16,647 nucleotides of DNA from a virus (taxonomy: Duplodnaviria; Heunggongvirae; Uroviricota; Caudoviricetes): the IMG/VR virus record IMGVR_UViG_2703718798_000004; one strand, given 5' to 3'. Under the pieces are notes generated by a model. The model was not told the origin of the DNA and searched no databases. It worked only from the letters and a program-made list of their open reading frames with translations. Shown one piece after another: positions 8,801-15,718 of this stretch. The stretch's first letter is position 1. Every line of letters starts with the position of its first letter. The translations under genes and the position numbers were made by a program.

Positions 8801-9406
8801 GTATGACGACCAGAGCGTCTTATTCTGCAGCTGGTCCGTGGTGCTGTCCGCCGTCTCCCTGACCATCCGGATGTTAAAGGGCCGGGGCGGCAGATTATCC
8901 AGAATCACCGACGCCAGGAACTGCGAGGTGGTCTTGCCGTTAATGGTGACATCCTTTTCCGTCATCCATTTACCACCACGCTCAAGCTGAATCAGCAGGC
9001 GGACAGACGTCGGGTTACGGTCACCCTTTGAGGTGGTCTCCACCAGTGACTGCACCCCGAAGGTCACCCGCAGACGGTCAATGTTCGCTGACGTAATGGT
9101 GCGTGTCACCGGTTTTGCCTTCGTCACTTCCACACCCAGTACAGTTTCAGCTCCGGAGGACTCAAAGCCTTCCGGTGGTGTCTGCTCCTGCTCCCCGGCG
9201 CGCCAGACCGCGGTCACACCGTGTATCACGGGATTACCGTCCGTGTCCGTCAGCGGGGTTTTGTTCACCAGAATACTCTGCAGGCCTTTCACCGGACCTT
9301 CAATGGGTCCCTCACCAATCGCATCAATCACGCTCATCATCTGCGTGGATTTGAGATTATCCTTCGCCTCACGAGGCGTGTGTGCCTTACCGCCACCTTT
9401 TCCCAT
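5876..9406 (-). CDS. J: Tail tip host-specificity protein J (central tail fibre), 1176 aa, with a non-lambda C-terminal ~150 aa
   Basis: N-terminus [39 protein letters not shown]... and long internal stretches (...[21 protein letters not shown]..., ...[30 protein letters not shown]..., ...[32 protein letters not shown]...) match lambda gpJ as I recall it. GGGGAAGG ribosome-binding site 4 nt before the ATG at 9406. After ...GDIVK the sequence no longer resembles the lambda LamB-binding end. Confidence 0.95.
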   Translation of the reverse strand: [1176 protein letters not shown]

Positions 9407-9509
9407 ACAGCCTTCCCCTGAATAAATTAACCGCCACTTGCCATTCCGTACAGAAGTCGGATATCCTTCGCCCGAAAAGCATGAAACACATTTCTGCCAT
9501 GCTAAACAG

Positions 9510-9545
9510 AAACCCCGGTATCAGCAGATACCGGGGTTTTCTTTC
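9510..9545 (+). terminator. Intrinsic terminator-like hairpin in the I-J intergenic region, oriented for the + strand (possibly bidirectional)
   Basis: Perfect 13-bp inverted repeat aaaccccggtatc (9510-9522) / gataccggggttt (9527-9539) with a 4-nt loop agca, followed on the + strand by ttttctttc. Confidence 0.5.
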
Positions 9546-9611
9546 ATGCCCACCGATAATCCTGTTGGTTAAAACCGGTAATGGCATAAAAATTCTGAAT
9601 ATCTTCACATT

Positions 9612-9639
9612 TTCACAAACTGACTGTGGCGCGTATAAT
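9612..9639 (+). promoter_or_regulatory. Candidate sigma70-type promoter on the + strand (antisense to the tail operon)
   Basis: -35 TTCACA (9612-9617), 16-bp spacer, -10 TATAAT (9634-9639, a perfect consensus hexamer). Predicted start around 9646. Confidence 0.4.
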
Positions 9640-9645
9640 TTCGCT

Positions 9646-9744
9646 GCGTTAGTGTTTTTTTTGCCCGAGTAACAAAAACAACTCCTTAACATTAATCTTC
9701 ATTTGTCTGTCCCCGCAGCTCCGCGATCACTGCGGGATTTTTTT
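9646..9744 (+). ncRNA. Candidate ~100-nt small RNA transcribed antisense to the tail operon, between genes I and J
   Basis: Bounded by the promoter at 9612-9639 and the terminator at 9712-9744. No start codon with a ribosome-binding site on the + strand in between. Purely structural prediction; no family recognised. Confidence 0.25.
9712..9744 (+). terminator. Rho-independent terminator on the + strand, just beyond the gene I stop codon
   Basis: Stem cccgcag (9712-9718) / ctgcggg (9730-9736) with an 11-nt loop, then a followed by a 7-nt T tract (9738-9744). On the minus strand the hairpin is followed by gacagacaaa (not U-rich), so it is unidirectional for the + strand. Confidence 0.5.
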
Positions 9745-9749
9745 ATGTT

Positions 9750-10430
9750 TTATCCCTGTCGACCAATAACCACCACCTTTCCGCCCCCGCCTTCATCACG
9801 GGTGCTGATGTCCTGAGAGATACGTCGTGAACCAACCAGCATTTCACCGTAGGGCACCGGCATCGGGTTGCCCTGGGCAATCATGTTGTCCAGTGAGGAA
9901 AAGTACGTGTTCTGTCTGCCGTTATCCGTTGCGCGGTAATCCGGTGTTTTTGCCTTCGGGGCCAGCATCTGTGCCACACCACCCAGAATCATGCTGGCTC
10001 CAAGTGAAAACAGCATCGTGGTGGCAGAAAAACCACCGGCTGCCAGGGCTGAACCCCATAACGCCATTGATGCCCCGGCAGTGAAGAAAGAGCCCACGAT
10101 GGCTGCCGCCCCCAGCACAATCTGCAGTCCACCCTTTCCGGCCCCGGCCAGTCGCGGCACAATGTGGATGACCGTTCCCTCACCCAGTGGTTCGTGAAGA
10201 CGGGCGTACACCGCCTCCGGTGCCGTGTCATCACCGGCAATACGTATCTGGTACCAGCCTTCGTTCATCTGACGGCGAAAGCCCGGCATCTGCATCGACA
10301 GGGCGCGGATGGCTTCCGCTGCCGTGTTCACATACAGGCTGAGGCGGCGGCCAAATCGTTGTAAATTCCCGTGAAGGCAGATGCGTGCCAGTGGCGGTGA
10401 CGCCAGACAGAATGCGTTCGTCGTTGCCAT
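9750..10430 (-). CDS. I: Tail tip assembly protein I, 226 aa
   Basis: MATTNAFCLASPPLARICLHGNLQRFGRR...IRIAG...VIHIVPRLAGAGKGG...QIVLGAAAIVGSFFTAGAS...GASMILGGVAQMLAPKAKTP...NTYFSSLDNMIAQGNPMPVPYGEM matches lambda gpI as I recall it, including the N-terminal ubiquitin-like region and the glycine-rich hydrophobic core. Confidence 0.9.
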   Translation of the reverse strand: MATTNAFCLASPPLARICLHGNLQRFGRRLSLYVNTAAEAIRALSMQMPGFRRQMNEGWYQIRIAGDDTAPEAVYARLHEPLGEGTVIHIVPRLAGAGKGGLQIVLGAAAIVGSFFTAGASMALWGSALAAGGFSATTMLFSLGASMILGGVAQMLAPKAKTPDYRATDNGRQNTYFSSLDNMIAQGNPMPVPYGEMLVGSRRISQDISTRDEGGGGKVVVIGRQG

Positions 10431-11081: not shown

Positions 11082-11780
11082 TTACTGCGAAAGTTTATTG
11101 ATGGAAAGGAAACCGCCAAAATTGCCGACATTCCTGCGCAGTTCACACCCGCGCATGCACTTGCTGCATCTGTCCTTACGGATATCCGTGGTGGGGTTGT
11201 CGAACTCATCCGCCACCGCAGGACCGTTATACCCGCATTCATCTCCCCGGTAATCCCACATACAGGTGTTCGCCAGCATGATGCGACCGGGAAACAGCGC
11301 ACCGTCCGTCTCCGTCGGTGTCGCCAGCACAAACGAGGCCGTCATGGCTGTCAGCTCCGACATCTGCTCCACCACCCAGCGGTCACTCAGCTCCTGCTCC
11401 GGGTCCGCCTCCGGATTGCCCGCAACGAAATTCACCGCATCCAGAAAACGGGCATACACCCGGCGGCGGACCACCATGGCCCCCACCAGGCTCTGCAAAT
11501 CCTCCGCCATTCCGGTGACAAGACCAAACAGATTGGACACCGTCAGCGACGGGCGGGCACTGCTGCCCTTTCCGTTCATCTCAAAGCCACTCCCCTCAAT
11601 CGGGTACGCCTGATATTGCCGCCCCTGCCAGGTCACCGGCTCCCCTTTTTCATTCAGCTCATTACAGAAAAAATACCGCTCACCGCCCTGTACCGTCAGG
11701 TCGATTTCCCAGAGCACCACCCGCGGTGACTGCTCTGACTTAACCGACTCGTTCAGACTTTCTTCGTGAATATCCTGCAT
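11082..11780 (-). CDS. L: Tail tip protein L, 232 aa
   Basis: MQDIHEESLNESVKSEQSPRVVLWEIDLTVQGGERYFFCNE... matches lambda gpL as I recall it. A C-terminal cysteine cluster (TCMWDYRGDEC...DRCSKCMRGC) is consistent with the iron-sulphur cluster reported for gpL. The ATG overlaps the M stop. Confidence 0.9.
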   Translation of the reverse strand: MQDIHEESLNESVKSEQSPRVVLWEIDLTVQGGERYFFCNELNEKGEPVTWQGRQYQAYPIEGSGFEMNGKGSSARPSLTVSNLFGLVTGMAEDLQSLVGAMVVRRRVYARFLDAVNFVAGNPEADPEQELSDRWVVEQMSELTAMTASFVLATPTETDGALFPGRIMLANTCMWDYRGDECGYNGPAVADEFDNPTTDIRKDRCSKCMRGCELRRNVGNFGGFLSINKLSQ

Positions 11781-15403: not shown

Positions 15404-15718
15404 TCATGACTGTGCTGCAAAGCTCAGCGCGTCTTCCAGCGCCGCAAACGGATCCACCTCCGGCTTATCCTCATCCTCGCCCCAGCAGAGCATGGCGTCC
15501 TTCAGTGCAACATTCATCCCCTGTGCCCCAAAAACCGCTTTCACGATCTGTGCATTACGGATATCCCCGCGCTCATCACCCAGCGGGGATACCCTGTCGA
15601 ACTCCATCCACATCATCGCCTCGCTCGCACTCAGGCTGTGCCGCAGTTCGGATAAGGTGCGCCCCAGACGGAGCCCAAGTCGCATCAGAAAGCGAATTTC
15701 CGGGCGGGCTACTTTTTT
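15404..15718 (-). CDS. T: T portion of the G-T tail assembly chaperone fusion, reached by a -1 programmed ribosomal frameshift from G
   Basis: The -1 frame entered at the slippery heptamer reads KKVARPEIRFLMRLGLRLGR..., identical to the ORF-track T frame (MRLGLRLGRTLSELRH...), and continues to the stop at 15404-15406. No separate ribosome-binding site is needed. Confidence 0.8.
   Translation of the reverse strand, partial: KKVARPEIRFLMRLGLRLGRTLSELRHSLSASEAMMWMEFDRVSPLGDERGDIRNAQIVKAVFGAQGMNVALKDAMLCWGEDEDKPEVDPFAALEDALSFAAQS

Follow-up and report, generated by a model that had tools for sequence, protein, structure and literature searches.

AgvB and AsxR are prophage-encoded anti-sRNAs (sRNA, small RNA) of enterohaemorrhagic Escherichia coli (EHEC), located downstream of PR' (Tree et al., Mol Cell 2014), and PasB, the pathogenicity-associated small RNA B, was reported from the enteropathogenic E. 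coli strain E2348/69 (NC_011601.1) by Pearl Mizrahi et al. (Sci Adv 2021; PMC8550237). In this strain pasB occupies 83 nt of the minus strand (NC_011601.1, 1466343..1466261) in prophage PP6, between E2348C_1436 and E2348C_1437 (PMC8550237, Table S6), and its distribution has been surveyed in a 2026 preprint by Zhu, Shabalina and Storz (bioRxiv 10.64898/2026.05.13.724894). Here we analysed a 16,647-nt stretch of DNA from a Caudoviricetes virus (IMG/VR record IMGVR_UViG_2703718798_000004), which we call the window and to whose full length all positions refer, and in which an insert separates the tail genes I and J. Judged by its sequence, the right half of this insert is pasB, a known prophage sRNA and not a new element, and we give a probability of about 0.9 to the whole reading of 9585-9749 as the pasB gene, a cassette for an Hfq-bound, trans-acting sRNA.

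For the E2348/69 allele, which is 97% identical to that of the window, the existence of the RNA, its approximate size, its Hfq dependence, its many Hfq-mediated RNA partners and its greater abundance in overnight lysogeny broth (LB) are all on record. In this strain a Northern blot shows PasB at its predicted size, and its stability is Hfq-dependent (PMC8550237). In the DESeq2 comparison of the hfq mutant with the wild type, pasB changed by a log2 value of -6.79 (adjusted P value 2e-40) in Dulbecco's modification of Eagle's medium (DMEM) and of -2.39 in overnight LB, and the RNA was more abundant in overnight static LB, the 'nonactivating' condition, than in mid-log DMEM (PMC8550237). Sequencing of ligated interacting RNAs (RIL-seq) yielded 37 PasB interactions, chiefly in the LB condition (PMC8550237), and a U tract of 7 is given for the RNA (PMC8550237, Table S5). 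The mean normalised count of pasB was 482, with I at 4.8 and J at 15 (PMC8550237), and PasB is therefore made from its own promoter with the late operon off. A common target motif was found for only 3/5 Pas RNAs (PMC8550237); those target-motif seeds were assigned to PasA and PasD, and the seed of PasB was predicted from conservation to lie immediately upstream of the terminator (bioRxiv 10.64898/2026.05.13.724894). The same survey reports 1158 PasB matches, mostly single copy and embedded in phage structural operons, and a distribution broader than those of the other Pas RNAs, PasB being also the one most frequent outside intact prophage calls (bioRxiv 10.64898/2026.05.13.724894).

The identity, position and orientation of the gene can be read in the window directly. 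At 9717-9739 the window agrees in every base with AATCCCGCAGTGATCGCGGAGCT, the Northern probe published for PasB; chance would give 0 such matches, and since the match is on the minus strand the probe detects a plus-strand RNA. The 83-nt PasB of E2348/69 aligns to 9662-9744 (+) with 81/83 identity, and these mapped boundaries are the ones we use for the RNA; the alignment is near-identical from ~9585 to 9760, a stretch that takes in promoter hexamers, RNA and terminator alike. A profile of 70 distinct variants, built from IMG/VR loci that were collected by terminator-anchored and promoter-anchored patterns, has a single match in the window, at 9646-9743 (E = 8e-26). The first-pass annotation, made from the letters alone, had proposed a plus-strand prophage sRNA that is antisense to the tail operon and ends at 9712-9744; by probe and alignment, this RNA is PasB. 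A regulatory RNA gene was thus recognised from raw sequence, which makes the locus a positive control for such reading.

The surroundings agree as well. In E2348/69 gene I ends at 1466255 and J (gpJ) starts at 1466496, with pasB between them at 1466261-1466343 in the opposite orientation, E2348C_1436 and E2348C_1437 being the tail assembly protein and gpJ. The two loci share the promoter region, the terminator and the antisense position between I and J in addition to the probe match. They differ at two positions of PasB (C27 and G33 in E2348/69, A27 and A33 in the window), in the 5' U run, which is one U longer in the window, and in the spacer to J, which measures 85 nt in E2348/69 whereas the window has the 187-nt long type. 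Position 27 separates PasB from PasB-2 (bioRxiv 10.64898/2026.05.13.724894), and the A27 of the window allele is probably this 'PasB-2' change of Zhu et al.

The tail operon of the window lies on the minus strand, with gene I (tail assembly) at 9750-10430 (-), a 226-aa open reading frame (ORF) with Pfam Lambda_tail_I at 1.4e-15, and gene J (tip attachment and host specificity) at 5876-9406 (-), a 1176-aa ORF with Pfam Ig_J, FNIII-A_GpJ and Phage_Tail_Tip. The I-J gap (9407-9749) measures 343 bp, in line with the ~340 bp first estimated; the lambda gap is 60 bp (I end 15444, J start 15505), so that the first description of I and J as essentially contiguous in lambda was close enough. The pasB gene and I are convergent, the 3' end of pasB lying 5 nt from the I stop codon. 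A 401-bp junction query matched 1649 of the 5426 complete E. coli genomes, which places pasB in ~30% of them, and also many Shiga toxin (Stx)-converting and other lambdoid phages; among the matches listed, no annotation names an RNA gene at the junction. With this recurrence and the profile match at E = 8e-26, the junction elements exceed chance by far. What the window holds is the gene of a known sRNA, self-transcribed and Hfq-dependent in E2348/69, antisense within the tail operon, and it is ordinary for a lambdoid E. coli prophage.

The 70 variants also indicate which parts of the RNA are kept. At least 97% of them retain the 5' GCGUUA (9646-9651), part of the U run, the AUCUU within UUAAUCUUC, and the terminator stem and U tail except the last position of the latter. 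The terminator (9712-9744, +), a likely Hfq-binding module, pairs CCCGCAG (9712-9718) with CUGCGGG (9730-9736) around an 11-nt loop and continues with an A and U7 (9738-9744); across the variants the 7-bp stem never changes, and loop length runs from 4 to 19 nt. The block UUAAUCUUC (9692-9700, +) is the most conserved unpaired one in the predicted fold and our candidate seed. An anti-Shine-Dalgarno-like CUCCUU lies at 9682-9687 (+), and AAC AAA AAC AAC at 9671-9682 (+) forms four A-R-N repeats within a tract that is A-rich in all variants. A-R-N repeats bind the distal face of Hfq, and a terminator hairpin with U7 and an A-R-N tract is the usual Hfq-binding architecture; by this analogy the tract of PasB is probably a distal-face contact. 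A 5' hairpin between the U run and the A tract was considered and is not claimed here: it can be drawn in most variants, with weak fold energies of -1 to -6 kcal/mol that are no better than those of shuffles (z -1.6 to +1.0). One variant carries UUCAU...AUGAA, which would be compensatory if the U run and the A tract paired; its predicted fold skips that pairing.

No ATG occurs in 9646-9744, and in the homologues the RNA body has gained or lost 1-19 nt at a time without keeping any frame. Since both these indels and the terminator loop vary in length, the PasB region is not translated, and the initial observation that no ORF with a ribosome-binding site is visible between promoter and terminator stands.

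The promoter first proposed for this RNA fared less well. Its hexamers are present, P1 (9612-9639, +) consisting of a -35 TTCACA (9612-9617), a 16-nt spacer and a -10 TATAAT (9634-9639), the two hexamers together giving an 11/12 match. The scan returned 3 promoter-like sites in 1.2 kb, compared with 0.8 +/- 0.8 in shuffles, and the P1 site is also found in E2348/69. The start that it predicts (~9646) does not coincide with the published 5' end (9662), which lies 16-17 nt further downstream. From the last base of TATAAT to the published end there are 22-23 nt (22 in E2348/69, where the U run is one shorter), the usual distance between a -10 and its start being ~7 nt. The upstream -10 is kept as xAxxxT in 67/71 units, with a mean match of 5.1/6; the -35 is unconserved in diverged variants, which have TCCGGC, TTTGCA or TTCTGT in its place. 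An alternative -10, TAGTGT (9650-9655, +), fits xAxxxT in 66/71 units, nearly all of them TAnnnT, and would imply transcription from 9663, within one base of the published end. Either PasB begins as a 99-nt product at ~9646 that is trimmed in the U run, or it starts at 9663 from TAGTGT. A start at ~9646, as set by the distance from TATAAT, would add a 5' extension GCGUUAGUGUUUUUUU (9646-9661, +) that contains the conserved GCGUUA and lies outside the published RNA boundaries. What makes PasB is the question that this disagreement between P1 and the published end poses.

A second conserved feature bears on what switches PasB on. The CRP-like box AATTCTGAATATCTTCACATTT (9591-9612, +) has the core TCTGA-N6-TCACA at 9594-9609, centred on 9601.5, and matches the CRP core (TGTGA-N6-TCACA) at 9/10 positions, 0.73 such matches being expected by chance per window. 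The case for it comes from conservation: it is found in 34/34 distinct terminator-anchored upstream sequences, a set that does not presuppose the box, and the distance between its centre and the upstream -10, counted to the first base of the latter, is 32.5 bp in 33 sequences and 33.5 bp in the remaining one. The changes it tolerates are confined to N6 (ATATCT, AATTCT, ATTTCT, GTTTAT) or to the already mismatched position (TCTGA to TATGA). The box centre is at -44.5 when counted from 9646 and at -61.5 when counted from 9663; the classic class I position of CRP is -61.5 (further ones being -71.5 and so on), and that of class II is near -41.5. The only hint from expression is that Spot 42 (Spf) behaves opposite to PasB in LB versus DMEM (PMC8550237), a contrast that fits CRP control and is confounded by growth phase. 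We regard CRP control of pasB as a tentative proposal, with the odds against it.

Several points weigh against the assignment of 9585-9749 to a functional PasB cassette. The published 5' end (9662) misfits the TATAAT promoter. The expression evidence belongs to the E2348/69 allele, from which the window allele differs at positions 27 and 33, and the change at position 27 alters the predicted 5' fold (bioRxiv 10.64898/2026.05.13.724894). PasB has no validated target or demonstrated function in any strain. RNAalifold, run on 18 diverse variants, returned the terminator only, with all 7 pairs invariant; since the stem never varies, it provides no covariation evidence either way. A comparison of the junction across related prophages, which the first-pass annotation had seen as a source of conservation or covariation, gave the former across the 70 variants and no covariation in the pasB terminator stem. 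Finally PasB is absent from Rfam 15, so that no curated model is applicable.

Taking these points into account, we propose the following mechanism. The pasB gene would be an autonomous 'moron'-type cassette between the I stop codon and the J start, on the strand opposite to the late operon, with a promoter of its own from which host RNA polymerase would transcribe it in the lysogen, to stop at the hairpin and U7 ending at 9744. The product would be a non-coding RNA of ~83 nt, possibly derived from a 99-nt precursor, and Hfq would bind and stabilise it through the 3' hairpin and U tail, probably also through the A-R-N tract. PasB would most likely act in trans, pairing through UUAAUCUUC and perhaps CUCCUU with host and prophage mRNAs, and the pairing would change the translation or stability of the targets. 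In this scheme the seed, the regulatory outcome, the -10 in use and CRP control are all inferred.

The position of the gene also suggests a role in cis, in which PasB, being perfectly complementary to the I-J segment of the late mRNA, would chiefly pair with this transcript once the prophage is induced, or be transcribed in collision against it, and alter its processing or the I:J ratio, for example via RNase III. The late transcription unit encloses the whole gene, which runs antisense within it and stops 5 nt short of the I stop codon, and its I-J position is kept in every locus examined; the pairing is guaranteed by geometry. However PasB is complementary to a non-coding spacer of the late mRNA and to no ribosome-binding site, with more than 250 nt between it and the J start, the 37 RIL-seq partners lie elsewhere in the genome, and the part of the RIL-seq interaction table that was available holds no interaction with E2348C_1436 or E2348C_1437. 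Moreover PasB was detected in uninduced cultures with I and J counts near zero. A mainly cis-acting PasB is therefore unlikely, and a cis role would be compatible with the trans-acting one that we prefer.

It is less probable still, and in our view very unlikely, that this prophage carries a decayed, silent remnant of pasB. The allele does differ from the validated one at two RNA positions and one in the U run, and PasB is, among the Pas RNAs, most often outside intact prophage calls (Zhu et al.). Its promoter hexamers, CRP-like box, terminator and U7 are nevertheless intact, identical or nearly so to those of the expressed E2348/69 copy, and the neighbouring tail genes are intact long ORFs.

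The junction is not restricted to one copy of the gene. Tandem PasB-like cassettes occupy the I-J gap of several comparison loci, labelled here as IMG/VR phage contigs, with four in L144, three in L137 and two each in L110, L147 and L120; each cassette has a TCTGA-N6-TCACA box, a -10 and its own terminator, and the RNA bodies differ. A second paralogue type (...CUCCUUAAGGUGACUAUUCGU...UUACGGGAGAUUUUUU) is present in 116 of the 5426 complete E. coli genomes, is unannotated among the matches listed and has no Rfam family. The published survey raised tandem duplication for pasA and pasD only, and merely to exclude it (bioRxiv 10.64898/2026.05.13.724894), and tandem pasB copies are mentioned in neither of the two Pas papers (PMC8550237; bioRxiv 10.64898/2026.05.13.724894), nor are a promoter, a transcription start or CRP. 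The 5'-end offset, the conserved candidate CRP operator and the cassette arrays are thus details beyond the published work, and what this analysis adds to a known RNA; they leave the main verdict unchanged.

With the paralogue arrays comes the question why pasB occupies the I-J junction. One speculative answer is that in lambdoid phages the junction is a dedicated, expandable landing site for a single family of sRNA cassettes, with PasB under cAMP-CRP control from the class I position at -61.5 and seed variants stacked two to four deep in some phages. The cassettes would share a CRP-type operator, the -10 and the terminator and would differ in their seed regions, and TATAAT would be a second promoter or the source of the 99-nt precursor trimmed at the U run. 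We consider this reading as a whole rather unlikely.

Three further observations concern copies and spread. L169 carries, ~3.3 kb beyond an intact pasB copy, the 3' part of a second one without its promoter (AACGTTAATCTTTGTCTGTCCCCGCAACTCTGCGGGATTTTTTT), which adjoins what, from the frames, appears to be a rearranged tail-gene fragment, the whole resembling a recombination scar. In L120 the sok antitoxin RNA (RF01794, 63.5 bits) lies at 5623-5781 (+), ~1 kb from the two-cassette I-J array. A contig scan with a 16-base promoter pattern was unspecific, returned mostly chance matches in unrelated phyla and says little beyond Escherichia; its only real homologues were E. albertii (L269), L301 and L250. 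The last of these (NZ_FWPT01000051.1, a 460-bp contig labelled Parendozoicomonas haliclonae) has a PasB-like cassette of 75% identity, and since the contig is so short and comes from a marine gammaproteobacterial assembly it may be contamination and not spread beyond Escherichia.

The left half of the insert is a separate module. This long spacer (9407-9584) comprises the 178 bp from the J start to the pasB promoter region, is absent from E2348/69 and occurs in 1446 of the 5426 genomes, each time at this junction and with an identity of 95% or more. Among loci with a locatable J start, the spacer between J and the pasB promoter is of two main types, a long one of ~187 nt, as in the window, and a short one of 84-85 nt, as in E2348/69. 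No homology to the long spacer was found elsewhere with the promoter profile or by blastn against 119 spacer-less loci. We also considered that it might be a decayed tandem PasB-like copy with the hairpin described below as its terminator, and rejected this: CCTTCCCCTGAATAAA and GCCCACCGATAATCC resemble pasB by eye, the promoter profile scores nothing in the spacer, and the best internal blastn match against the 119 loci reached 29.7 bits, shuffled queries reaching up to 32.6 bits.

Within this spacer lies a 13-bp hairpin (9510-9545; stem 9510-9522 / 9527-9539, loop AGCA), with UUUUCUUUC as its tail on the plus strand and UUUCUGUUU on the minus strand. Folding located it, and the scan the promoter and the terminator, where the first-pass annotation had placed them. 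On the plus strand the stem is perfect, folds at -24.8 kcal/mol (z = -7.1; 0/200 shuffles fold as well) and is followed by UCUUUC, and on the minus strand the energy is -27.4 kcal/mol (z = -5.2). The hairpin looks like a bidirectional terminator; the terminator scan called it on neither strand. In two IMG/VR loci a clean 47-nt deletion (~9502-9548) between TTTCT direct repeats has removed it and left the remaining spacer intact, so it is dispensable in at least some prophages. The short spacer of the E2348/69 type has its own late-strand hairpin, GCAGGCACC...GGTGCCTGT followed by TGTTTTTGTG, which the scan scores as terminator-like and in whose stem some variants have replaced C-G by U-A, a compensatory change, and the 60-bp gap of lambda has AAACCGCC-UGCG-GGCGGUUU with the U-rich tail UGUCAUUU. 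Since three unrelated spacers hold such a hairpin upstream of J (L313 1246-1305, corresponding to lambda 15445-15504; L002 1931-1964; window 9510-9545), it looks like a general feature of the lambdoid I-J junction. The pasB gene sits between the I stop codon and this late-strand hairpin, and the hairpin belongs to a separate spacer module, not to the sRNA gene.

These hairpins invite the explanation that they are attenuators of the tail operon which reduce read-through from I into J, the promoter-like sequence being incidental. Late-strand hairpins with U-rich tails do stand upstream of J in the window, in E2348/69 and in lambda, and the compensatory change in the E2348/69-type stem is in its favour. 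The pasB terminator is a different matter, since on the minus strand it has no U tract, with A7 before the hairpin and GACAGACAAAUG after it; the attenuation idea, which the first-pass annotation had raised for both hairpins, is inapplicable here and possible for the upstream one only. Furthermore the plus-strand RNA has been demonstrated in E2348/69, late transcription of lambdoid phages is Q-antiterminated and passes intrinsic terminators, so that Q-modified polymerase should ignore the hairpin, and two loci have lost the window-type hairpin. Attenuation thus covers at most the upstream hairpin, and as an account of the insert it is quite improbable. The upstream hairpin might block unmodified polymerase from J in the lysogen, or stabilise mRNA ends.

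The insert also contains ORFs, and a small protein could be the product of the 101-aa ORF at 9387-9692 (-), of the 96-aa ORF at 9382-9672 (+) or of a 66-aa gene of phage ASU11. Annotation lends this some weight, as ASU11_gp9c is recorded as hypothetical across the long spacer and two other records place short ORFs over pasB, yet RefSeq annotates nothing there among the genomes listed, and neither ORF has a Pfam family. Both ORFs traverse the hairpin and overlap the J start, their frames are broken in other copies by 1-nt indels, as spacer lengths of 182, 186 and 187 nt show, and by the 47-nt deletion, and the long spacer is wholly missing in E2348/69. We consider a protein product extremely improbable.

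How PasB relates to other described elements can now be stated. An identity with AgvB or AsxR was rejected, because these lie downstream of PR' and PasB in the tail operon, and because RF02702 and RF02703 have no match even at E up to 10. PasB resembles them in being prophage-encoded, Hfq-bound, short and terminator-ended, with A-R-N motifs and expression in the lysogen from a site that tolerates inserts; they differ from it in sequence, in length (51-60 nt) and in their location near the stx and lysis region, and PasB is not known to sponge another sRNA. The class II sRNAs, such as ChiX, MgrR and CyaR, resemble PasB in having a terminator hairpin, a long run of U behind it and an A-R-N tract inside the RNA, and in their strong dependence on Hfq (log2 -6.8 for PasB); class assignment would rest on Hfq face mutants. 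Morons, as Juhala et al. reportedly set out in the Journal of Molecular Biology in 2000, are units of promoter, gene and terminator between two conserved phage genes. Like them, pasB is extra DNA relative to lambda (343 versus 60 bp) with its own promoter and terminator, and expression of the moron kind, autonomous with the late genes silent, has been shown in E2348/69; unlike them, it carries an RNA and not a protein as its cargo and is oriented against the operon.

Searches under other names and models added no further relative. At the gathering threshold Rfam matched nothing in the window and, across six related loci, only the unrelated sok of L120, and at E up to 10 the window gave sub-threshold chance matches only. 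A literature search for the PasB sequence under other names found no paper. EcOnc47 of EHEC Sakai was rejected as a homologue, being antisense to dinI, and no EHEC homologue is entered for PasB (PMC8550237, Table S6).

Of the remaining tail genes in the window, Pfam also confirmed L (11082-11780) and one for a tail fibre (4201-5691). Downstream of the tail-fibre genes, where ORFs are sparse, the CRP core is matched twice more with a single mismatch each, at 3396-3411 (+) (TGTGACAAGCACCACA) and 3485-3500 (+) (TGTGACAGGCATCACT), 89 bp apart.

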